Assembly: GCF_964194025.1 (NCBI RefSeq) | Contig: NC_134472.1 | Span: forward strand, 868,001 to 932,000 | DNA from: Convolutriloba macropyga | Lineage: Eukaryota | Direction of reading: 5' to 3' | DNA: 64,000 nucleotides | Shown here: in pieces, positions 10,033 to 41,005 of the stretch | Numbering within the stretch: position 1 is the stretch's first letter | How the letters are laid out: each line of letters opens with the position of its first letter | The notes under the pieces: generated by a model | Seen by the model: only the letters and a program-made list of their open reading frames with translations | The model's database searches: none | Told to the model about the DNA's origin: nothing | Program-made: the position numbers and the translations under genes

Positions 10033-10160
10033 AATTCTCATAGACCATATAGAAATTAGAATAATAGAATTCTCATTGAAATCAAACTGAACTACATGTA
10101 GTTCAGTTTGATTTCAATGAAAATTCTATTATTCTAATTTCTGTATGGTCTATGAGAATT
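10033..10160. repeat. Spacer-less palindrome, 64-bp arms
   Basis: Centre AACTACA|TGTAGTT at 10096/10097; arms are complementary with 2 mismatches. Confidence 0.95.
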
Positions 10161-10941
10161 ATTATAGAAAAATGAGGTTTCACAGCAGATAGAAATCTAC
10201 TTTGCAAATATCTTTAAAAATTAACCATTTAGAACAAGTATTTCTCTATTCACTAGTAAATGGCCAAAAATGATGTATAGTTTTTCAGTCTTCCACAAAT
10301 ATTTTTATCATGCGTACCTATATGATTCCGGCATCACTTCTGTGGGTCGTTACAACAAAATTTATATTTTTGTCTTTTATATGAGAAGAGTTGCAAGGTA
10401 ATAAACAAATAGAAAAAGGTAAATCTATAACGCGAAGTAAGTATAATCTAGAAATAAGTACCACACTTTTCCTACTCCTTGAAGCCGTAAATAGCCTTTC
10501 AGATTCTGCCATATTTCTACGGGAATTGGTTTTTTAAAAAGCAAGATGCATCTTGCTTTTTAAAAAAACCAATTCCCGTAGAAATATGGCAGAATCTGAA
10601 AGGCTATTTACGGCTTCAAGGAGTAGGAAAAGTGTGGTACTTATTTCTAGATTATACTTACTTCGCGTTATAGATTTACCTTTTTCTATTTGTTTATTAC
10701 CTTGCAACTCTTCTCATATAAAAGACAAAAATATAAATTTTGTTGTAACGACCCACAGAAGTGATGCCGGAATCATATAGGTACGCATGATAAAAATATT
10801 TGTGGAAGACTGAAAAACTATACATCATTTTTGGCCATTTACTAGTGAATAGAGAAATACTTGTTCTAAATGGTTAATTTTTAAAGATATTTGCAAAGTA
10901 GATTTCTATCTGCTGTGAAACCTCATTTTTCTATCATAATT
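10157..10941. repeat. Spacer-less palindrome, ~390-bp arms
   Basis: Centre GCAAGATG|CATCTTGC at 10548/10549. Arms are near-identical (one homopolymer indel, one mismatch near the outer end). The mirror ORFs 10318-10512(-) and 10553-10780(+) share the same peptide. Confidence 0.97.
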
Positions 10942-12861: not shown

Positions 12862-14786
12862 ACATTTTCAAAACTGATATAACTTCTTATCTGCGATTTT
12901 TGGCCTATCATACCCATTCGTAGCCTTCATTGCCTTTTTTAAGCTCTTTTTATTTGTATTTGTCAGTATAAATTTTCAAAAAAAAACGTATTTAAAACTA
13001 GAAGAGCTAGAGGGATCATTTCGTGACATTAAAGAAGATGGGTACCAGTAGTTGTTTCATCCTTCTTTGTTATTGACTAGGCCAATTGGTTTCCCTGATT
13101 GTGACTAGTTTTTCCTATTTTCCCAACTTTGCCCAGTTTGCCCTTTTGCTTTTAATTTTTTGCGATTTCGGGGAAAATTTTTCGACGGGAATTGAACTAC
13201 CGCGTATGCTGGTCAGACTGAGTGAACAAACCACTAAACCAATCGTGCCGGACATGTAGCGTTAATTTTGTTGTAAGTATTGCATTGCACGCATTTCAAA
13301 TGACCGAAAAGCCGCTTTGACAAAGAAGTGTCTCTGAGCTAAAAGATACTTTGACATAAAAGCCGCTTTTTAGGACATTGACCGTTTTGTTGCCATTTAA
13401 TCTCTTGTTTCGCATTTTTTTAAGCATGCTTGACTTCATTTGCTTTGAACAGAACCGTTTTATTTATGCGGTGTAATTAGCCTTACGCACTTTGCTTTGA
13501 ACTTGAAAAGAGCATTAATTCTCAAAATTGGTTACGTTGGGAGTGGGTAAGTTGGCATTGGGTAAAATGGAATTGGGCAAATTGTCATCTGACCACAAAA
13601 CGGGGGGGGGGCTATAATGGCATAGACCCGAATTTTCAGATTTTTTTCATTAAATTTGAACTGCAACAATTCTGTGACCGGTTAACTGTCGGTCATTTGA
13701 ATTTCAATTGGACGGATATAAAGACAATAACTCAGCTTCATTATTTTTGAATACAATTGTATAATTTAAAAAGATGTATTGTTTTCATTAAGCATTGCTC
13801 TTGTTGAAGTATTAATTCCGTTCATACAACCAATTGAAGATTAAAAACTCGAAGCTCTATTACATTTGATAGCACGTGTCATATTATTACACTACTAATA
13901 TCATTCTGGTTGACTGTACTCCAAATTTATCTTCAACTGGTTAACTGTGAATCTAAATTTGAGCAGCAACAGAATTGATAACTGAGCAATTATTGGTAAC
14001 AAGGTAAGAAAAACTTTCTTGTCCGCTATATTTCCTGACAAAAAAGAGCTGAAATGAATTAAATATTCAGCAGTTCCAAAATGACCTCTTTAGTTCGCCA
14101 ATAAGTTGACAAACGTAATAGGAGTACTGCTAGTAAATAAAAACTCACATTAAAAACGAAATATTAAGAGAATTTTGCGTTTTCCACGAACGTCTTTCGA
14201 GAAATTTGTTCAATTTCGATCATTCCAGAATCCCTTGAAGCAACTTTTGCGATGTGAATTTATGCATCGTGATCGAATTGAACAGAATTTATGCTGGACT
14301 CAAGATATTATTAAAAGTTTATAGCGGTTTCAAAATTAACTTCTACAGCAAACTTAGAATATTCTTTGGCCATTATAATTATTTTTATTTTTGTTCGACG
14401 AGTCAAACCAATTATGCTCCTCCCTTTTTTCTGAATAATTAAATAATCGGTCGGTGCAGCACATGAAATGTCGAAATTGTAATTAATAGTGCAAGGGCAA
14501 CACTTTTTCGTCAAAACTGTCCCTCATCTGAGTGTATTGGAAACAACGCACATTTATATCAGCAAATGAACAAATCAGTAATTTTCATAAAAGTTTCAAA
14601 ATGAGTGGTTTTTTTGAAATGTTTTGTTGGTATCAGTATGCTGGTTCTTAATTGCACGGAAAGCTAGATTGAGGATTAAAAAAAATCAAGAGTACTAAAA
14701 TTCACTTTTCCGCAAAATGTTACTTTTCCGCATTGTATGCGCTCCATTTTCTCTATCCAAATAAATTGAGTTCCAAGTATATCATA

Positions 14787-17398
14787 TGTGGAATTGATAC
14801 AAATCATGGGTCCTTAACCCCTAGTTGAGAGAGGTACTTGGCTTTCAAAATAGTAATTAATTTGCAAAGTTTCGAAGTTTATCTTGAGCGTATTCGATAA
14901 GTAAACAAAAGGAGCGAACTTGAGCGATTTAGGTTGGTGTGAAATCTTATGTAAACAAAAGGTAGATTAGATTTGCAAAGTGATCAAGTTGTCAGAAATA
15001 GTCAGAATCAAACTCCAAGGTCATTAAACGAAAGAAACCAAGTATGAATATACCAAAAAAAGAACGGAAGGGCTTGGCAAAAGCAATGATAATTTAATAA
15101 ATAAATTCCCCGAAATCCCAAAAATGCGTCCTCTAATAGCCATTTTGGTATGATAAACGCAAGTATTTATTCCCTATAAGTAACTACAAGTTTGGGGTTA
15201 CTGCTTAGTGTTTTCAGGAAAAATATAAAGGTTATCTCAACAAGGAAAACTTAAGGCTTAAAAAGGGAAAAACAAAAGGAATGCTTTGAAGAATTTGTCG
15301 GCCAAATTTATTGTATTTTTCGAACGAAAAACATGTTTGTTAGCCTCCAAAAGTTACCCACAGCATGGGGAAGACCAATTAAAGACAAAGAGGTAAAGCT
15401 GTTGTCACAACCTATACTCTGTGAAAAAACAAAGCAAATTATATGTGAAAGAAAAAGCACTTACCAATATTTTGTTTTTCAAATGGTAGAAAAGAGACTT
15501 TTAATCGTTAAAAACTGATACTTTTATGGTGTAATTCAGCAAGTGTTTTCTGCACAAAAATCAAACGGGCTTGAATCCATATTAAAATTAGTAAAATAAA
15601 AAGATGGTTGAAGGGACACGCATGAAGAAATGAAAAGGAAAATAAAACGGTTTGAAAAAGTGTTAGCTTTTTATTGCAATAGTGTTTTGAATCCAAACCC
15701 GGTAACCCCATTTTGGGAGAATTAGTGAGAGTATTATTTCAGTAGTGTTTTGTTTTTGCAGAAGAAAATTGGAAGAGATCTTGGGAATTATTGCAATTAA
15801 TTGTTGGAGTTCTTATATCCAAATTTTGTCAGTCAGGTCGCATTTAGCGGGGGATTTTCGGTTAAATCATAGTGTCTAGTAGAATCAGAGCTCGGAAAAA
15901 GTAACGCTACTATCGGTTTGGTAATTACACATTGTAGGAAATCATTGTTGTCAAGGAAAAGCGGTAACTAAAGTATTAGAGGTTCAAAAGGTCTAAACAT
16001 TTGCAAAAGAGAATTTTTGGTGGAAAAAACGAGTTATGAAGTGAGTTCAATGTATGAGATGGGACTAATTATTGCCCTGAAGTGTTCTAGAGAATAGATT
16101 GATAAGTCCAAAAGAGCACAATAGCTGTTTGAAGGAATTTCTGATAGAGAGAAACTCCAAAGTTACAAAACCAAGCGTCCAAGCAAGTCCTGAAAACCCT
16201 ACTTCCTCAAGTCCGATCACCATGAAATTTTAACTGATCACTCCTCGGACAATTCCTTGCACCTTGAAAAAAAACAACAGGCTTTTTCCGGTACCCGCAA
16301 CCGCCGCCTTTTTGGCCTTTAAAGAAAACAAAGAAAAAGGCAGAAAGAACTATGTTTTCCCTGATTTTTAAATAACTGCCAGATCATTAAAAAACAATAT
16401 TCTCAGAACCACAGGGGAGCAAACGTATTCTTGGGTTAAATCAGGCAAGTTTTAGCAACATGAAAAAGGATAAAACAGAGTGTATGTACTTGTATAAGAA
16501 CTGTTGAACATGAAACATAAGTTTTGTTGCATCTTGAACTTATCAAAGCGAGTTGTTCACAAAATTCCGGTCATCTTTAGCAAACATTTACATTAGATAA
16601 ACTACAGCGCATAGACAATATCCTACGCCCACTAATACGCTTATACGTTAGGTCAAAATGTTCGAAAAGGAACGACACGTTACGTTTTACTGATAAAAAC
16701 TGATAAGGTTGAGTACCCTTAAGAACAAGAAAAACCATCAGACGCGAGAGAGCAAGTCTGAGAGAAAGACTTACGAGACTGAAACACAGCAGTTTGTTAG
16801 TCAAAACTGTGTGAGAGAGAAAGCTCAAGTGGAGCAGTTGATTCTCAGAGTGAGAAAATTGTAGTTGTTTAGTGAGTTCTTTGCGAATGAACATAGTTTG
16901 GCAGTTGCAGTGAGTGAAACTGCAACGTTTTTCAAAAGTGTTGATTGCGAAGATTATAAGTTTCTGGCCAGTAACATAGCTACTGGGCGGCAGAACTTAT
17001 TTCAGTTATCGGTGAAAAGAAGTAGAGTGACGGATTTGTGGATACTTGCGGAGAGAGTGATTGAATTGGTTTGATTTAGTGTGGATCATTAATTAGTTTT
17101 GATAGAAAAATTACTTTTGATTGTTGAATTTACTCAATTAACTGTCTCTGGCTATAACATAACTTGTTGCTGGTATTACATATTTTGATTAATAATTGAA
17201 TTATCTTGAGTGAAGTGTTCAAGCAGCCGATAGAGCAACATTTTTTGGGGACAACACAGTACACTCCCTATTACAAGAGGAACCACCAAACAAATCTTTC
17301 GGAATTTTGACGGAGTTTTGACGGAAATTTTCGGAGTTTTGGGCGCTAGCCAGTCCCCAGCTAAAAGCCTTCTAACGACAAAAATACAAAATTCTACA
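14787..17398 (+). repeat. 5' LTR
   Basis: TGTGGAATT...AATTCTACA; ~99% identical to the 3' LTR by eye, with an extra ~22 bp near 17310-17335. Confidence 0.97.
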
Positions 17399-17399
17399 G

Positions 17400-17419
17400 T
17401 GGCGCTCCTGGGTGGGCTC
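17400..17419 (+). other. Primer binding site, tRNA-Asn-like
   Basis: TGGCGCTCCTGGGTGGGCTC lies one base after the LTR. Its reverse complement GAGCCCACCCAGGAGCGCCA resembles the 3' end of animal tRNA-Asn(GUU) plus CCA. Confidence 0.8.
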
Positions 17420-17809
17420 TTTTGTTAAAAATGGAGTTATTCGGAAAATTTGAGTGTGAAGAGAGTTCTGCGAAACTTGCAACAACTTCTCAAAGCTGGC
17501 GAATTTCTACGCAGAGCAAGTCGAGGAACACGTTGAAGATAATTTGAACCAGATTACAAGTGTTGTGGAACGGAGGAGATTGATAGAATTTGAGCAACAG
17601 AGACAGACATTACCCGGAGAGGGTTATTTTGGAACACAGTCAGTCATTTTTCTCGGGACGAGGATTCTGAGTGTAGAGCTGGGAGTACCCGAGCAGATAG
17701 ATTGAGGAGAATACTCAGACAGAGATGAGAAGAAGAACTAAGACGACTTGTAGCAGAGGTTGAAGCCTCAGAAGAGCAGTCGGAGTGAAAGGCAGTATTT
17801 TGGAAAACA

Positions 17810-19324
17810 ATGGCAGGATTCGGGTCCATAAAACGCTTTCCTTCGCCTAGGTATGAATTTTGGGAGGACTGGCGTGAGTATTACTTGGATGTTTGTGAAG
17901 TGTTCATGTGGACAGAAGACGAAGTCAAGAGATACTTGCCAGAGAAGTTGTGTGATTGGGCACTTGACTCCTTGAATTATTTGCCACACAAATTTTGGAA
18001 ATCCGATCAAAAGTATCGTGCTTGGACTCTTCAAGAAACTTTGTACTTCTTTGATCTGAGACTGTCCAATAACCCACAGTTTTATAAGGATGCGTTTGAG
18101 AGATACTTGATAGAGAAAGAGGAATATGAGGAAGCGGTTTTACAGTGTGAAATTGACAGACCAGTTTTTCAAAGTGACGTTGTTGACGGAGAGGAGTTAC
18201 AGCGCCAAGAGCGGACTCCAACATCAGACAAAAAGAAAGACGTTCAAGTGAAAACCGATATAATTGTCAAATCAGTGATGACCAAAAAGCCAGCAAAGAT
18301 TTCTTCGACTAAACATTGGTCTGCCATAAAAGCTGTTGGTTTTGGGGTAAAAGCAATGCTGGAAGAGAACCCGAAGTTCAGAGACGGTACGAGAAGAAGC
18401 TTTTCAAAATTGGCTGACAGTTTGTCCGGTGTGGAGATTGTTGCTGATTCGAATGTCATTGGTGGCAATCTAACCTTCAATTTTTACGGAGAGATGGAGG
18501 AGCAGATTACGACAAAGACAATATCTGAAGATGAACAGTTCAAGAAAATGATGGATCGATGCATTGCACGGTGGGACAATAGTGAGAAGATAAAAATTGC
18601 AGAGCAGAGGAACGAAGCACTCGAAGAAATTGATTTCAGTGAGTTGGAGGATGATGCAACTTTTATTCACGACGATTTTAGTGATGATGACAGCTTCTTT
18701 GAAAGTGACGATGAACACAAGTTTTACTGCATGGACGACGATGTGTTCCTACCAAACATTCGTGGGCGGCACAGTAGTTCTGATTCTTTGGCGTCGACAC
18801 CAGGAAACGAATTGACAGTTGTGAAGAAGTGCTCCAAAAGTTTGACAACTCTTGAAGAAATCACGTCCGGTCCTGGCGTGCCGTGGCACTTTGGCAAATG
18901 GATAGATGTTGGAGAAACAGCTATGCCGCATTTTAGCGTTGCTCACAGAGATGATTTGGCCACAGCAGCAGAAAATATTTTTAGTGGAAATTTGATTGCT
19001 ATTAGTTCACGCCAGGGTATAGTCAGTACTGGGTCGCAGCACTTTGACCACATTAGTGTGACCCGAACGTCTGAAGATAACTCTGAGAAATTACAAGGGA
19101 GTTTTGTATCTTTCCCAACAGACGGTGCCGATCGCAAAGCCACCCAAAGTTTTGGTAGCAAGGCTGCAAAAGCAAACACGGATGGATTTCTAGAAGAAAG
19201 CAAAGAAGAAAAATCGACTACAGCCGCGAAATCAGGCGCGGAAATTTTTTCTCCGAGAATTGGAAAGAAAACGCAGTTGATGAAACAGATAAATATGAAA
19301 AAGAGGACTCAAAAAGTTGCGTGA
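17810..19324 (+). CDS. Retroelement ORF1: N-terminal Gag/capsid-like segment plus long acidic, low-complexity orphan region (504 aa)
   Basis: Long ORF after the PBS. The N-terminal pattern FWEDWREYY...W...YLPEKLCDWALD resembles retrotransposon Gag. No CCHC knuckle. Confidence 0.7.
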   Translation: MAGFGSIKRFPSPRYEFWEDWREYYLDVCEVFMWTEDEVKRYLPEKLCDWALDSLNYLPHKFWKSDQKYRAWTLQETLYFFDLRLSNNPQFYKDAFERYLIEKEEYEEAVLQCEIDRPVFQSDVVDGEELQRQERTPTSDKKKDVQVKTDIIVKSVMTKKPAKISSTKHWSAIKAVGFGVKAMLEENPKFRDGTRRSFSKLADSLSGVEIVADSNVIGGNLTFNFYGEMEEQITTKTISEDEQFKKMMDRCIARWDNSEKIKIAEQRNEALEEIDFSELEDDATFIHDDFSDDDSFFESDDEHKFYCMDDDVFLPNIRGRHSSSDSLASTPGNELTVVKKCSKSLTTLEEITSGPGVPWHFGKWIDVGETAMPHFSVAHRDDLATAAENIFSGNLIAISSRQGIVSTGSQHFDHISVTRTSEDNSEKLQGSFVSFPTDGADRKATQSFGSKAAKANTDGFLEESKEEKSTTAAKSGAEIFSPRIGKKTQLMKQINMKKRTQKVA

Positions 19325-20229
19325 CTGCCGTAGGCAGCGGGAATACTATAGAAGAAGAAATATCTAGTTTTGGAAATTCGCTTCAGCTAGTGCCTGTAAT
19401 TTTTAGAAAGCTGGATAATCAGAGCTTCGATGCAGAAATAGCGGCGGCTGGGGAAACAGTTATTTATGATGTTTGTGACCATTCAATTGCTGAAGAATTA
19501 GTAAAGTCTGGCGCCCTCATTAATGGGCAAGATGGAAGTGGTGATGGCTCGGGTGATGTGGTTTGTGGTTTAGTTCAGATGAATTTGGAAGAGCCAGATC
19601 GCAAGAAAAAATGTTCATTAAACTCGGAGGCCCTATTACTCCACTCGGATGAGAAAAAGTTGAAACTGAGTTTCTCTTATGCTGCCAATGATGGGACTCC
19701 TCAGCGCAACCAGTTTGAAAGAAGCGCAAATGAGCAGTCACTGATGTTGGGGCAAGGCAGTGTTTCTACTCCAGAAGAAATCTTATTCCGAGAATATTCA
19801 ACTAGCGAATCAGATTGTGAAGTGTTGCACATCCAGAAGGGAGAGTTTGGCGACGATAAGTCAGTGTCACCTTCAAGGGAAATTGATCTGGAGCTGAAAT
19901 TGCTATTTGACGGAGAAAACAGTTTTCCGTTTGATTTTGGAGAGAATGTAGTGCCAGTACAATTCGAGAGTTCTTATTCGAAGCAAGATAATAAACGGGA
20001 GCAGTCCTCGGATTTTGAAGTCAAGAAAGCAGTAAATACTGATCTAAATCAGTTTTCAATGGGCGTATTTGGCCAAGAAGAGATAGTACAAAATAGGAGG
20101 GAGGTATCGTATAGTTCTTCTCCGAACTTGTTGAGGGCGAAGGACGATCAGAGAGGTCTGGAACTGGAGTACCCTGAGTTGTACAAGCTGTTGTTTAGAA
20201 AGCAAAAAGTCAGTCGGAAGGAGAAGTAG
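19321..20229 (+). CDS. Retroelement ORF2, acidic orphan protein (302 aa); probably the frameshifted continuation of ORF1
   Basis: This frame is open from 19159, lies at -1 relative to ORF1 and has a similar D/E/S-rich composition. No pol motifs. Confidence 0.6.
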   Translation: MTAVGSGNTIEEEISSFGNSLQLVPVIFRKLDNQSFDAEIAAAGETVIYDVCDHSIAEELVKSGALINGQDGSGDGSGDVVCGLVQMNLEEPDRKKKCSLNSEALLLHSDEKKLKLSFSYAANDGTPQRNQFERSANEQSLMLGQGSVSTPEEILFREYSTSESDCEVLHIQKGEFGDDKSVSPSREIDLELKLLFDGENSFPFDFGENVVPVQFESSYSKQDNKREQSSDFEVKKAVNTDLNQFSMGVFGQEEIVQNRREVSYSSSPNLLRAKDDQRGLELEYPELYKLLFRKQKVSRKEK

Positions 20230-20869
20230 AACAAACTGAAAACGAGGTGTTATTCGTCCAGGGGAGTCTTGCGCAAACGAATGAAAAGGTCGAAGAATGA
20301 GAATGGAGGCGGTCATCCATTCAAGCATCGGAGGAAGAAAGAAGAGTTGACAAAGTTGGTAAAGTTGAACTGTCTTTGGTGAGAACTAGTTATTCAAATC
20401 TGCAGCTCTTATGGTTGGGGGTTTTTATGCCATAAATTAAATTAGAAGCTCACAATTGACTCAACAAATCTTCTGTTAATTTTCAAAGTGCATGTGCTCT
20501 TAATGACAAAAACCATTGGAAAAAGATGGTCAGTTTAATTAAAATGTACGGAATTGAGACTAGGATTAAGAGTTACGGTTGTTGCTATAGTATTTTTTTT
20601 AACATTGAGCTTCTTTTCAGCCAGTGTTTTGATCTAAAAACAATTGGTTAACTGTGTCATTTTTTAATGATCATGCTTATATCTTCTAATTTTTACTTAA
20701 TCAGTAAACGGTGCTCTGGGCATTTTCTAATTTTCATTTAATTGGAGCTCCATTTAATTGGTTCACACTAACGGATGTTCACTAAGTTTCTAAACTAAAA
20801 ACGCTCTGTGCTAAAGAAAAAGTGTACTAGTACACAGGACATTTTAATTATTCGGGAGAATAATAGTCT

Positions 20870-20881
20870 GGAAGGGAGGAG
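20870..20881 (+). other. Polypurine tract
   Basis: GGAAGGGAGGAG directly before the 3' LTR. Confidence 0.9.
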
Positions 20882-23472
20882 TGTGGAATTGATACAAATC
20901 ATGGGTCTTTAACCCCTAGTTGAGAGAGGGACTTGGCTTTCAAAATAGTAATTAATTTGCAAAGTTTCGAAGTTTATCTTGAGCGTATTTGATAAGTAAA
21001 CAAAAGGAGCGAACTTGAGCGATTTAGGTTGGTGTGAAATCTTATGTAAACAAAAGGTAGATTAGATTTGCAAGGTGATCAAGTTGTCAGAAATAGTCAG
21101 AATCAAACTCCAAGGTCATTAAACGAAAGAAGCCAAGTATGAATATACCAAAAAAAGAATGGAAGGGCTTGGCAAAAGCAATGATAATTTAATAAATAAA
21201 TTCCCCGAAATCCCAAAAATGCGTCCTCTAATAGCCATTTTGGTATGATAAACGCAAGTATTTATTCCCTATAAGTAACTACAAGTATGGGGTTACTGCT
21301 TAGTGTTTTCAGGAAAAATTTAAAGGTTATCTCAACAAGGAAAACTTAAGGCTTAAAAAGGGAAAAACAAAAGGAATGCTTTGAAGAATTTGTCGGCCAA
21401 ATTTATTGTATTTTTCCAACGAAAAACATGTTTGTTAGCCTCCAACAGTTACCCACAGCATGGGGAAGACCAATTAAAGACAAAGAGGTAAAGCTGTTGT
21501 CACAAACTATACTCTGTGAAAAAACAAAGCAAATTATATGTGAAAGAAAAAGCACTTACCAATATTTTGTTTTTCAAATGGTAGAAAAGAGACTTTTAAT
21601 CGTTAAAAACTGATACTTTTATGGTGTAATTCAGCAAGTATTTTCTGCACAAAAATCAAACGGGCTTGAATCCATATTAATATTAGTAAAATAAAAAGAT
21701 GGTTGAAGGGACACGCATGAAGAAATGAAAAGGAAAATAAAACGGTTTGAAAAAGTGTTAGCTTTTTATTGCAATAGTGTTTTGAATCCAAACCCGGTAA
21801 CCCCATTTTGGGAGAATTAGTGAGAGTATTATTTCAGTAGTGTTTTGTTTTTGCAGAAGAAAATTGGAAGAGATCTTGGGAATTATTGCAATTAGTTGTT
21901 GGAGTTCTTATATCCAAATTTTGTCAGTCAGGTCGCATTTAGCGGGGGATTTTCGGTTAAATCATAGTGTCTAGTAGAATCAGAGCTCGGAAAAAGTAAC
22001 GCTACTATCGGTTTGGTAATTACACATTGTAGGAAATCATTGTTGTCAAGGAAAAGCGGTAACTAAAGTATTAGAGGTTCAAAAGGTCTAAACATTTGCA
22101 AAAGAGAATTTTTGGTGGAAAAAACGAGTTATGAAGTGAGTTCAATGTATGAGATGGGACTAATAATTGCCCTGAAGTGTTCTAGAGAATAGATTGATAA
22201 GTCCAAAAGAGCACAATGGCTGTTTGAAGGAATTTCTGATAGAGAGAAACTCCAAAGTTACAAAACCAAGCGTCCAAGCAAGTCCTGAAAACCCTACTTC
22301 CTCAAGTCCGATCACCATGAAATTTTAACTGATCACTCCTCGGACAATTCCTTGCACCTTGAAAAAAACAACAGGCTTTTTCCGGTACCCGCAACCGCCG
22401 CTTTTTTGGCCTTTAAAGAAAACAAAGAAAAAGGCAGAAAGAACTATGTTTTCCCTTATTTTTAAATAACTGTCAGATCATTAAAACACAATATTCTCAG
22501 AACCACAGGGGAGCAAACGTATTCTTGGGTTAAATCAGGCAAGTTTTAGCAACATCAAAAAGGATAAAACAGAGTGTATGTACTTGTATAAGAACTGTTG
22601 AACATGAAACATAAGTTTTGTTGCATCTTGAACTTATCAAAGCGAGTTGTTCACAAAATTCCGGTCATCTTAAGCAAACATTTACTTTAGATAAACTACA
22701 GCGCATAGACAATATCCTACGCCCACTAATACGCTTATACGTTAGGTCAAAAATGTTCGAAAAGGAACGACACGTTACGTTTTACTGATAAAAACTGATA
22801 AGGTTGAGTACCCTTAAGAACAAGAAAAACCATCAGACGCGAGAGAGCAAGTCTGAGAGAAAGACTTACGAGACTGAAACACAGCAGTTTGTTAGTCAAA
22901 ACTGTGTGAGAGAGAAAGCTCAAGTGGAGCAGTTGATTCTCAGAGTGAGAAAATTGTAGTTGTTTAGTGAGTTCTTTGCGAATGAACATAGTTTGGCAGT
23001 TGCAGTGAGTGAAACTGCAACGTTTTTCAAAAGTGTTGATTGCGAAGATTATAAGTTTCTGGCCAGTAACATAGCTACTGGGCGGCAGAACTTATTTCAG
23101 TTATCGGTGAAAAGAAGTAGAGTGACGGATTTGTGGATACTTGCGGAGAGAGTGATTGAATTGGTTTGATTTAGTGTGGATCATTAATTAGTTTTGATAG
23201 AAAAATTACTTTTGATTGTTGAATTTACTCAATTAACTGTCTCTGGCTATAACATAACTTGTTGCTGGTATTACATATTTTGATTAATAATTGAATTATC
23301 TTGAGTGAAGTTTTCAAGCAGCCGATAGAGCAACATTTTTTGGGGACAACACAGTACACTCCCTATTACAAGAGGAACCACCAAACAAATCTTTCGGAAT
23401 TTTGACAGAGTTTTGGGCGCTAGCCAGTCCCCAGCTAGAAGCCTTCTAACGACAAAAATACAAAATTCTACA
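20882..23472 (+). repeat. 3' LTR
   Basis: TGTGGAATT...AATTCTACA, followed by the TSD TCATA. Confidence 0.97.
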
Positions 23473-23487
23473 TCATAGAACATAAAT

Positions 23488-23664
23488 CTTAGTCGCCCGT
23501 GAGACTTAGCATACTGACACGAGGGGGCTAGGAACAATGCCTAGGATACTAGGTTTTATATACTAACGTGTTTAGAGACGCAACGGTAAAAATTTAAGCG
23601 CTGATTCTTGACACTTGAGAAAGAGTCAAAAGTTAGATTTTGCTAGTGCGAACGGGCGACTAAG
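23488..23664. mobile_element. Putative small MITE
   Basis: Perfect 13-bp inverted repeat CTTAGTCGCCCGT / ACGGGCGACTAAG. Confidence 0.45.
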
Positions 23665-23741
23665 TAGGGCTAGCAATAGTTCACTTATGAGGGCAACTAA
23701 GTGGGGGACAATATTTTAGACAAATACTCGATAAAAACATA

Positions 23742-23888
23742 TTGGATCTTTTCCGTTTGTGCGCCTACCCAGTAGCAGAGCACGTGTCATTAAATAGTAA
23801 ATCATTATGCCAAAATACGCCAAGTGCGTCTTGGGGGTGCAAATAATATACACCCACTAAGCTGGAGGCACAAACGGAAAAGGTCCAA
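23742..23888. mobile_element. Putative small MITE
   Basis: 21-bp inverted repeat TTGGATCTTTTCCGTTTGTGC / GCACAAACGGAAAAGGTCCAA with 1 mismatch. Confidence 0.6.
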
Positions 23889-24884
23889 CATATTTATATT
23901 GCGAACGTATTTTCCACGAGCGCTTCTAAGATTTCACAGCAAATTAATTGACTAAGTTGAGCTGTTTCGAAGTTTTAGTGCCTGACTATTTTTAAATCCG
24001 ATTTTTTCGCCTAACACGAAATCAGTTCAATCTCAATTTGAAATTTTGATGAATCTAAAGGACAAAACTTTTAGACAACTTTTGCAATAAAAACTTCTGA
24101 GCCGATTGTCTTTTTTTAGAGAAGCAATTGTCTATTTTTAGGAGAATCAAGAAGCCTAACAATGAATCAGGTGTCAGAACCAAATAACCAACTTAACTTA
24201 TTTAATTGGTAGCTAAAACATAGAAACTCACGTACAAGTATATGTTAGAGTATAGTTCTGGGAAGCCTAAAGCAATTAGAGCTCACAGCCGACGGCTCTT
24301 TATTGTTGATTTTCTTTTAATAGCAAAATTGAGGACTAAAAGTTACGTGCTAGTGGAAAGTATGGTTTTATCACGCAAAATCGTGTCATTTTTTGCCCTA
24401 TTTTGTTGCCCTAACTTAGTACATACTTTTTTTGAAATAATACATTTTCGCAATACCATGATCTCACTTTTAACGTTTCCGCAACTGTTACTAGAAAAGT
24501 GGCTAAATAAAATTTAGATGTGACGGAGAGTATTAAATAAATCATTTTTTCTCAAAAACGGGTGTCCTAAAATTGCTCGCCAAATAACACATGTTTAGTT
24601 TATCAAATTAGTTTATCATTGATTCTCCAATTACATCTAAGTGCTCGTACTTATAAGTTGTTTCTGGAATAAAAAATCAAATACAAAAAGGTAAACTTCG
24701 TTTTAAAAAATTCATGTAGCTAAAATTTTTCTTTGCTGCTGGGATATTGCAGAACCAATATTTTCTGAATAATAAACCGGTTAAAATAAAAAAAAATGGG
24801 GGAAGGGATAGGGAACAAGTTTTCACGATTTCAATTTTACTTTTTTTAAGTACACCTTGGTATGTCTGGCGAAGAACATTGGTA

Positions 24885-38489: not shown

Positions 38490-39900
38490 ATGACGTTATT
38501 AGCTTACTTCTGCTTTCTTAATCAATATATTCTCTTCCAGTGACACTTAGTTGCCCTCAATATATACACCATAAATTTAGCCCAAAAAGCAATCTTCAAC
38601 TTTACTTATCTCAAAATCAGCAGCATTCTCGGCTTGAAAACCAAATCAATTCATTGACCAACAATGTTCAGCCTTTCGAAGACAGCCATAGCCTGCCTAC
38701 TATCTTACTTATTGGGATATATTCAAATTATCTCAAGTAACCATCACATTTAACTTACATAAAATTTCTTCAAATGAAAAACTAAAAGAAAATGAAATTC
38801 TGATCGCATAGACAGTCTACAATAAAACTTCAGAACCAAAACTTTAAAATCTCACACGAGAACTAGCGAAGATGTGGGCTTCAAAAAATTATGGTTGCAA
38901 ATAGTATTATACTAACATGAGCGAACCTAGATCTGGCTAACATTAGATTGCAGAACTAGCAATTATAAAATACCAACTTGCACAACAAGATATCGAATCA
39001 TTAATATTGAAAATGTCACATCTCATTCGCTCACGCGCCGCAACGGACACAAGTTTTCCCATAAACCACAAACTGCCGCCAATGCCATCAAAAACACTAT
39101 AATGAACGCGCTATATGTCATTCAAAATCCCCATGCCAGTCGGGGACACAAACAGAGCACTAGTTTGGCTTCTAGAAGTCCAAAATATGCCCTTCTCGGA
39201 CGACAGAGATTACTTCAAATTAATCGACGATAACGAGCTCGAAAATTGCACTGGGTTCAAAAAATACGAAATATGCACAAAAACTATACAGAGGCAACGA
39301 AAAGCTACTTGCCTCGTACCGCTGTCAATTGGATTTTATCGAATTACCACGGACCGAAAAAGCTTGCAATTTTGGCTTTGGTCGTTGGTTAGTTACGTCG
39401 GCAAGCGACTACACAGTCTTCGAGAGCACAGTGAAAAGCAGAAATCTTTCAGCAAGTATTGAGGATACCGGATGCAGAGTTTACATAATCACTTTAGGAT
39501 TCGGAAAACAATTACGTGGACCAAACAAACAGCTAAGATCAGATATCACTGTTTTTGTTTTGGTACCGGTAACAAGACTTGAGTTCCAACTAGCCAACCC
39601 AATCAGTATTATCTTCAACCTGCTACCGCCTCTTGGGGAATTACCAAGTATCTCGTCAAGATCAGAAGCACAAAACCCAATTCTTCGTCAACGACAGCCT
39701 CAATTTCAACACACTGATTCACGGAAAATCAACACACAATCGATCCAAAAGATAGCGCAACCAATTCTGGAAAAAAATCAAGCAGTGAAGCCCAAGCTTG
39801 AAAAAAAACTGAAAGAATACATTCAGTGGTAGATGTCACTATTATTTGGATTTCTTTCTTTCCTGATAAGTGTTATTCTGCATCTCACACATTCACATTT
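38490..39900 (+). pseudogene. Degenerate envelope / class I fusion (F-like) glycoprotein of a retroelement
   Basis: The overlapping ORFs 39115-39462 and 39329-39832 join by a frameshift into a Cys-spaced ectodomain (LENCTGFKKYEIC...TCL...LPRTEKACNFGFGRWLVTS...GCRV). After an in-frame stop comes a hydrophobic TM (MSLLFGFLSFLISVILHL) and a basic tail. The 5' boundary is tentative. Confidence 0.55.
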
Positions 39901-40499: not shown

Positions 40500-41005
40500 T
40501 TACATTCCACGGAAAATGTCATTTTTGTTTTTTGGATTTCTTTCGCTCTTGATAAGTGTTTTCCTGCATCTTACATATTCACATTTTTTACACAAAAGGG
40601 CAAAACTACAACGCAGGTTGCGGTTCCGGCTAACACACGAAGAGCGAAAGATCAAAAGAAAACCTGTACAAGTAGTTGCAATAAATGACTACGAAAATCT
40701 ACAAGAGCGTCCGGAGCACGCACTATAAGAATGTTTGCTTGTTTCACCGTAGAAAACTAAGGGCAAATTCGACACGCAGCAGGAAACCAATAGCACACGT
40801 GTACGTACGCATTTTTTGTCGAATTACATCAAACGTCTGAAAAGGTCGGGAAAACCCACGCTAACGATTTTAAAACGGAACATACCTCCAACTGCATATT
40901 CCCAGTGAACTTACACTACTGTACTAGAAATTTCACAAGCAAAACTGCCCACCCATTACGGGGCGTACCCACTCAGAACCGTGAACACTGAAAGTGTCTA
41001 AAAGA
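40500..41005 (+). repeat. Second copy of the env-like TM/cytoplasmic tail
   Basis: ORF 40447-40728 (MSFLFFGFLSLLISVFLHLTYSHF...ERPEH) is homologous to 39830-40320. Confidence 0.85.

Follow-up and report, generated by a model that had tools for sequence, protein, structure and literature searches.

The window analysed here is the 64,000-nucleotide stretch of Convolutriloba macropyga contig NC_134472.1 between positions 868,001 and 932,000 of the forward strand, and it carries at its own positions 14,787 to 23,472 a long terminal repeat (LTR) element whose interior encodes no pol functions. The explanation that we favour, at a probability of about 0.45, is that this element is a broken copy of a pol-less family (family A) that would be copied by the enzymes of a gag-pol-env family of the same genome (H1), and that the family protein, composed of a single capsid lobe joined by a long acidic spacer to a basic tip, would act in cis as an adaptor. 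Almost certain, in our judgement, is the joint result beneath this explanation: a pol-less family, a capsid N-terminal lobe (N-lobe) fold, selection that acts on the lobe and keeps a frame open through the basic motif, and cis signals shared with H1.

A DNA search of the genome, in which 40 of 244 candidates were scored, recovered 30 full 3.5-kb interiors at 81–100% identity, the window copy included. The pol-less layout was identical in all 53 family A loci examined, namely 39 from this search and 14 among 20 later hits to the N-terminal domain or the LTR junction (the other six belonged to a sister family, E), and an H1-like pol occurred in none of the 53. Family A is a pol-less family that has repeatedly made fresh insertions and not a one-off deletion. 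Matching 5-bp target-site duplications (TSDs) flanked 26 of the 28 copies having two complete LTRs, and LTR divergence across the 28 dated copies ranged from 0.04% to 3.3%, with a median of 0.23%. The original prediction, made from the letters of the window, had estimated a difference of about 1% between the LTRs and had called the insertion recent; the LTR pair differs by 26 substitutions in 2590 aligned sites (1.0%), which bears out the estimate, yet the window copy is the sixth oldest of the 28, and its recency must be qualified to that extent.

A single frame of 838–860 amino acids (aa) began at the first ATG and extended as far as the terminal motif in 18 of the 30 full copies and was broken in the other 12, the window copy among them. 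The single open reading frame (ORF) of ~800 aa predicted for the window copy is in fact split into frames of 504 and 356 aa that overlap out of register, with a stop in addition. The second frame stops inside the C-terminal module of the family; with the frame broken, the window copy lacks the full protein, and its first frame alone would yield the lobe and part of the spacer. One subfamily (L034, L035, L037, L038, L125–L127, L131 and L133) has a spacer shorter by ~590 nt, and its open copy L034 is still in frame to the terminal motif; L033 is a single deletion copy without the N-lobe. The right-flank TSD of L026 equals that of L013 and the TSDs of L020 mismatch, suggesting recombination or assembly joins. 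Just 5' of the main ATG most copies also have an ATG-less open leader stretch of ~105 codons, with few indels and less divergence than the 3' untranslated region (UTR). Its ratio of non-synonymous to synonymous substitution (dN/dS) was 0.64 (0.41–1.01), not separable from that of its other frames, and readthrough or frameshifting from it into the main ORF was considered but not retained, because the two stand in different registers in different subfamilies.

Values of dN/dS were calculated by pairwise Nei-Gojobori comparison of 10 divergent representatives of the 20 family A copies that are open over 780 codons or more and of 14 copies of a second pol-less family, B, with intervals from codon bootstraps; the pairs are non-independent, the copies are mosaic and one family A representative leaves the frame close to its end. 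The N-lobe gave 0.20 (0.11–0.34) in family A and 0.22 (0.13–0.38) in family B, the spacer 0.74 and 0.76, respectively, and the C-terminal module of family B 0.39 (0.27–0.59), in comparison to 0.78–1.01 for the 3' UTR control. The N-lobe is under purifying selection, and the spacer is under selection for its frame with little selection on its residues. Across the 30 family A copies, indels common to at least two copies were in frame in 8 of 8 cases in the ORF versus 6 of 28 in the 3' UTR (P 1e-4), and private ORF indels were in frame in 8 of 26 cases. All 18 in-register stops of family A were private, where ~66 shared stops would be expected at the UTR variant rate, possibly inflated by misalignment, and ~46 when scaled to the rate of the ORF itself. 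Shared indels of 21 family B copies were likewise in frame in 2 of 2 cases in the ORF versus 2 of 16 in the UTR, and 12 of their 14 stop sites were private, one that is common to six copies lying past the motif. Copies break after insertion and broken ones hardly ever found lineages, from which it is likely that the product acts in cis.

The first 95 residues of the protein are predicted to adopt the fold of a Ty3/Gypsy capsid N-lobe. Residues 9–85 aligned to H1 Gag 47–123 at 31% identity, and a model of residues 1–111 with a mean predicted local distance difference test score (pLDDT) of 83 had the PNMA2 capsid as its best Foldseek match (probability 0.99, E 0.05), capsid proteins filling nearly all rows; in a wide structural search (VIA) the first 36 rows were all capsid or capsid-derived. 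Structural matches included dArc1 42–121 (Z 7.6, root-mean-square deviation 2.4, 74 aligned), PNMA2 162–244 (Z 6.4) and the Ty3 N-lobe (Z 5.7). The fold by itself does not tell an N-lobe from a C-lobe, and it is the alignment ahead of the Retrotrans_gag match in H1 Gag, and to PNMA2 162–244, that points to the N-lobe. A profile match to helper-type Gag (probability 97.9) spanned only its residues 24–139, and the Gag profile was covered at positions 26–115 of 357 only, corresponding to the N-lobe and the first helix beyond it. No profile match to the C-lobe or the zinc knuckle was found in the satellite protein, as we term the product of these pol-less elements, indicating that the whole Gag is not retained. 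The Gag-like N-terminus of the original prediction can accordingly be kept as a capsid fold, reduced to one of the two capsid lobes. Together with the dN/dS of the lobe and the 53 loci that lack pol, this fold also answers the two tests that the prediction had set itself, a normal pol in other copies and an ORF with neither purifying selection nor a capsid fold, in favour of a non-autonomous family.

Sequence searches of Pfam and PDB with the lobe gave only matches below cut-off. In a tree of 40 lobe sequences, rooted at the midpoint only and comprising no donor test, the satellite lobes formed one starred group, separate from H1, from a second pol-bearing family (H2) and from 20 database Gags. 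When 1.84 billion proteins were searched with a profile, 33 matches resulted, all reading as members of these same families, and a word search with the lobe, covering lengths 470–1497 only, gave 19 near-copies among 189 candidates and no relatives past them.

Beyond the lobe, the spacer contains 20% aspartate plus glutamate versus 9% in shuffles and has a net charge of -55; from composition alone it appears to be disordered. The last 76 residues contain 33% lysine plus arginine with a net charge of +18. The acidic tail without a known family noted by the original prediction is therefore acidic beyond its base composition, and the strongly basic module at its end had been overlooked. Lysine and arginine make up 26–33% of this module, in clustered basic runs. 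Both ends of the protein, including the GGHPFK-basic motif, are retained in families A, B, C and E, and the middle varies in sequence and in length, from ~370 to >1000 residues. Across three families the C-terminal motif is conserved at the protein level, most changes in it being synonymous. Comparison of the C-terminal module to Pfam, Atlas and the helper proteins gave no match and hence no known fold or family; a weak H1 match (E 1.7–2.9) was rejected as out of frame in other H1 copies. A full-length model of a natural open copy had a mean pLDDT of 30.6, with even the N-lobe below 50, and a prediction of complexes between the window N-lobe and four helper capsid domains scored 0.01, with alignments not used and controls not folded, a value that speaks neither for nor against docking.

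The search for an autonomous element with the same LTR end and primer-binding site (PBS), as the original prediction had proposed, identified H1. Between its LTRs H1 encodes, in order, a Gag with a zinc knuckle, a Pol with protease, reverse transcriptase (RT) and RNase H as well as integrase, and a third ORF, which has a furin-type site and resembles an F-type envelope (env) protein through a weak Baculo_F match below cut-off (E 0.006). Three H1 LTR pairs over 3.2–3.4 kb were 98.8–99.9% alike, and the two that were checked carry 5-bp TSDs. H1 and family A share the PBS, the LTR end, a hairpin ahead of the polypurine tract (PPT) and the 5-bp TSD, and their LTRs have three blocks in common, whereas the LTRs of family A and H2 have none. 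The stem of the 7-bp hairpin is the same in A, B, C and H1 and carries a compensated pair in family D and H2, and the D LTR is common with that of H2; H2 was ruled out as the helper of family A by the lack of LTR similarity, its different LTR end and its hairpin variant. The family A interior has no DNA similarity to H1 past the primer site, and family A is therefore not a recent deletion of H1. When 74 junctions that match the H1-type LTR end exactly were classed by the seven letters following the primer site, 38 were A, 18 C, 17 H1 (four of these in one tandem array) and one other, so that pol-less junctions outnumbered those of H1 by 56 to 17. Judging from these sequence features, H1, a young Gypsy family of the same genome, is probably the helper of family A.

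Several further features of H1 were observed. Its LTR contains two ORFs (L103 1653–2567 and 2636–2989), of 304 aa in antisense and of 117 aa in sense, the latter basic at its start; the 304-aa ORF has a weak match to an integrase-type zinc-binding domain (E 0.034). The family A LTR lacks both, and family A may depend on its helper for them too. ORFs of 100–200 aa lie on both strands between env and the 3' LTR of H1 and H2 (L104, L106, L108, L112 and L114), some of them kept across copies, and a tandem array of H1-type units at C2 17.26–17.31 Mb (L070, L115 and L116) has a spacing of 11.9 kb, less than a full H1.

Family A is one of several pol-less families. The N-terminal 111 residues gave 867 candidate genome matches, of which 150 were scored, and the 20 that were fetched revealed families B and E. 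Family B has distinct 2.5–3.0-kb LTRs, a 2.1–2.3-kb interior and an ORF of ~550 aa. Family E (L058, L059, L134–L136, L138, L140 and L142) has an interior 72–80% alike to that of A with a different LTR that shares only its last 65 nt with A, indicating that LTR bodies were swapped and the end kept. The CA-preceded primer site occurs 199 times in the genome; among the 100 sites listed, ~52 were unexplained by the search with the N-terminal 111 residues, and the 40 fetched from these comprised 14 B, 8 C, 7 D and 11 with pol or its remnants (8 H1, 2 H2, 1 degraded). Family C has 1-kb LTRs and a longer ORF. Family D (L064, L067, L082, L083, L087, L089 and L098) is pol-less, with ~2.3-kb LTRs 85–90% alike to those of H2 and a long acidic ORF in which Gag, N-lobe and basic motif were all undetected; a capsid C-lobe motif suspected there was unsupported (E 0.6–0.8). 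On sequence grounds D and H2 would be a further pair of satellite and helper, differing in cargo.

No similarity to H1 Pol, Env or Gag's C-terminal half was found inside the elements at 108 pol-less loci (53 A, 8 E, 32 B, 8 C and 7 D), the sole match belonging to a neighbouring element outside the LTRs of L090. The LTR end of family B (L040–L057 and other loci) had no pol-bearing counterpart among the 40 fetched primer sites, and its helper may be H1 despite the differing end, or an element not seen here. Within family B, L063 contains a nested insertion with an RT-like motif and L057 a tandem duplication of the 5' region.

For the window copy itself (Table 1), the TG..CA ends, TSD, PBS and PPT were all intact, as the original prediction had stated, and its 60% share of the LTRs was borne out. 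The tRNA-Asn-like primer it proposed was also confirmed: the PBS complements the last 17 nt of the tRNA-Asn(GTT) gene plus CCA, with 16 gene-type matches in the genome and none for a control pattern. The prediction of an interior without protease, RT, RNase H or integrase stood as well, the best pol, env or capsid C-lobe match in 14000–24000 having an E of 0.10; no Pfam family was matched at cut-off in the element and Rfam gave 0 matches within it. The left flank and the LTR start were spanned by one public-run contig with zero differences, and the 300-nt flank of the element is single-copy in the genome.

Table 1. Features of the family A copy in the window (window coordinates).
Feature	Position	Strand	Remarks
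LTR element	14787..23472	+	8686 nt in total; LTRs 59.9%
5' TSD	14782..14786	+	TCATA
5' LTR	14787..17398	+	2612 nt; TG..CA ends
LTR block common with H1	16183..16337	+	88% identity
Second LTR block common with H1	16509..16751	+	77%
Final 65 nt of LTR	17334..17398	+	95% identical to H1, 94–95% to family E; likely the integrase/priming end
PBS	17400..17419	+	20 nt; exact complement of host tRNA-Asn(GTT) 3' end + CCA
Leader stretch	17460..17788	+	open but ATG-less in the family; interrupted in window copy
First frame of window copy	17810..19324	+	504 aa
Residues 1–95	17810..18094	+	predicted Ty3/Gypsy capsid N-terminal lobe only; fold, profile, dN/dS 0.20
Acidic spacer, part 1	18095..19324	+	window-copy frame breaks within 19159–19324
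Second frame; acidic spacer, part 2	19159..20229	+	356 aa, different frame; ends at stop private to window copy
Basic C-terminal module	20152..20382	+	GGHPFKHRRKK motif 20308–20340; interrupted by window-copy stop 20227–20229
Hairpin	20847..20864	+	7 bp; directly before PPT
PPT	20870..20881	+	
3' LTR	20882..23472	+	2591 nt
3' TSD	23473..23477	+	TCATA

Elsewhere in the window, positions 10033–10941 contain an inverted repeat of 384 nt (complementarity 99%, loop of 17 nt), adjoining a 64-nt palindrome, that resembles a young fold-back element or a miniature inverted-repeat transposable element. Positions 41000–63900 hold a diverged repeat array with ~0.9-kb and 3.5-kb periods, partly inverted past 59 kb. 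A 202-aa open stretch at 39224–39832 (+) is the sole other one of more than 140 codons in the window.

The mechanism that we propose would begin with satellite RNA primed by tRNA-Asn and, as the shared signals suggest, copied and integrated by H1 enzymes. Protein translated from the same RNA would dock through its lone lobe on the growing helper capsid shell. The basic tip would hold the RNA from which the protein was made, with the long flexible acidic spacer serving as tether, and the adaptor could thereby carry its own RNA into helper particles. We propose this tentatively, at slightly less than even odds for an adaptor whose N-lobe would dock, whose basic tip would bind RNA and whose spacer would be the tether. 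In capsids N-lobes make five- and six-fold rings that the C-lobes join (PMC11684626, excerpt), and a protein keeping the N-lobe only should therefore not build a shell by itself. A wider proposal, possible but doubtful, is a radiation of satellite retroelements parasitising an enveloped endogenous retrovirus, in which the lone lobe would dock on the helper shell, a new basic RNA-binding tip at the end of the acidic tether would replace the nucleocapsid, and the self-loading RNA could ride particles between cells.

Several observations weigh against this interpretation. The C-terminal module of family A had a dN/dS of 0.70 (0.39–1.31), which is not significant, and the spacer value of 0.74 lies near the non-coding control, indicating that spacer residues, and so most residues of the protein, are close to free of constraint. 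One internal stop of family B is common to 2 of 21 copies, and a trans-acting product from one expressed copy per cell would also give private breaks. Structural Z-scores were below 8 and Foldseek E values at least 0.05, the N-lobe is only 31% identical to H1 Gag, and the satellite lobes sit on their own long branch, not nested in H1. The basic motif is also well kept at the DNA level, so its conservation could partly reflect an RNA signal. In the case of RTL8, an N-lobe-only protein, particle yield is reduced rather than helped (PMC11684626, excerpt).

The free residues of the spacer are also what would be expected if translation itself produced the cis effect, a long open frame stabilising or routing the genomic RNA, with the conserved ends secondary. 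The spacer is selected for frame and little for residues, its length varies freely up to an in-frame deletion subfamily, and a cis effect of a Gag-derived ORF has been reported for IAP 1-delta-1 (PMC6466679, excerpt). We consider this unlikely, given an N-lobe with a dN/dS of ~0.2 in two families, a kept capsid fold, a C-terminal motif conserved at the protein level over three, and an acidity far above that set by base composition. Another alternative is a competitor, a lone lobe that enters helper lattices and blocks or biases the packaging of helper RNA, in the manner of RTL8 or of Ty1 p22, which is reportedly a single-lobe capsid inhibitor. RTL8 provides a known precedent (PMC11684626, excerpt) and the excess of pol-less over H1 junctions would fit; but a diffusible inhibitor would aid broken copies equally, yet breaks are not inherited, and H1 itself is young and multi-copy. 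This alternative thus appears distinctly unlikely, and the cis selection pattern favours aid to the element's own RNA over pure interference.

The basic tip might instead direct nuclear import or target chromatin, moving along with the particle and promoting the integration of satellite cDNA. Its clustered basic runs would suit such a role, which would also be cis if the protein stays with its RNA; the module has no known fold or family, however, and N-lobe docking would still be needed, so that this improbable alternative overlaps with the adaptor explanation. We regard as very improbable a role of the protein for the host, which would tolerate the family on that account, as reported for the zebrafish Bik-1 Gag. 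The Bik-1/2 elements are young, pol-less and Gag-encoding and have host roles (PMC12067270, excerpt), but selection of that kind would hold one or a few loci, whereas here 12 of 30 copies break after insertion and the source lineages stay open, and no relatives were found past near-copies. The frameshift and stop of the window copy would agree with a decayed internal deletion of an ordinary element that makes no working protein; with a pol-less layout at all 53 loci, a selected lobe and frame, and an interior unlike H1 past the PBS, this can be practically discounted.

Much is still to be learned about the way in which non-autonomous LTR elements win packaging over their helpers; RNA signals or a whole Gag are the answers known so far. 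In the present case several sister families have retained a protein with half a capsid, which seemingly serves only the RNA encoding it, beside an identifiable and equally young helper. The pair is small enough for study, with a 95-residue lobe, a 170-residue helper capsid domain and a 75-residue basic module. If docking is true, single-lobe capsid proteins would be not just host restriction factors such as RTL8 and p22 but also a boarding device of parasites.

Among known systems, large retrotransposon derivatives (LARDs) have by definition a non-coding interior, whereas the satellite interior holds an ORF under selection and so departs from that definition. In length the window element, at 8686 nt, exceeds the >4 kb given for LARDs, and the TR-GAG elements of plants are non-autonomous LTR elements that keep a GAG or GAG/protease ORF (PMC13570524, excerpt). 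The satellite resembles TR-GAG in having LTRs, a PBS, a PPT and a Gag-derived ORF and no RT, RNase H or integrase. It differs in keeping the capsid N-lobe alone, without C-lobe or zinc knuckle, fused to a non-Gag spacer and a basic tip, and in having a candidate partner that bears an envelope.

Pol-less LTR elements were held by the original prediction to be mainly plant elements, but they also occur in animals. Bik-1 and Bik-2 (BHIKHARI, zebrafish) and ENS-1 (chicken) are likewise young, multi-copy and pol-less with one long Gag-derived ORF; the Bik Gag, of a lokiretrovirus, combines a coiled coil with a complete CA domain and a tail rich in glycine, and no partner was found in the reference (PMC12067270, excerpt), whereas the satellite has one half of a Ty3/Gypsy capsid and shares its genome with a candidate helper. 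IAP 1-delta-1 of mouse is, like the satellite, non-autonomous, more successful than its helper and endowed with a cis-acting Gag-derived protein, but it is a simple gag-pol deletion fusion near-identical to the helper (PMC6466679, excerpt), whereas the satellite interior shows no DNA similarity to its candidate helper and the tail is not derived from pol. RTL8 is an N-lobe-only Gag-derived protein that enters PEG10 particles through N-lobe contacts (PMC11684626, excerpt); it is a 113-aa domesticated inhibitory host gene, in comparison to an 850-aa satellite protein that is carried on a mobile element and selected in cis.

The helper H1, and not the satellite, compares with the 'ancient errantiviruses', env-carrying Ty3/gypsy elements that it resembles in the order of gag, pol and F-like env, in its LTRs and in its tRNA PBS; env-bearing Gypsy elements are widespread among invertebrates, and the term 'non-autonomous' is absent from the main text of that source (PMC13524379). 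Identity with Troyka was rejected as a misfit, Troyka having a 3-bp TSD and CG ends (PMC12440569, excerpt). Pol-less Gag elements are thus already known; no description of an N-lobe-only mobile satellite, combining the lobe with spacer and basic tip, was found in the open literature, and it may be catalogued in subscription journals or Repbase-type libraries, which lay outside this search. Phage satellites rework the capsids of their helpers, and by analogy we propose that the elements described here could be their retroviral counterpart.

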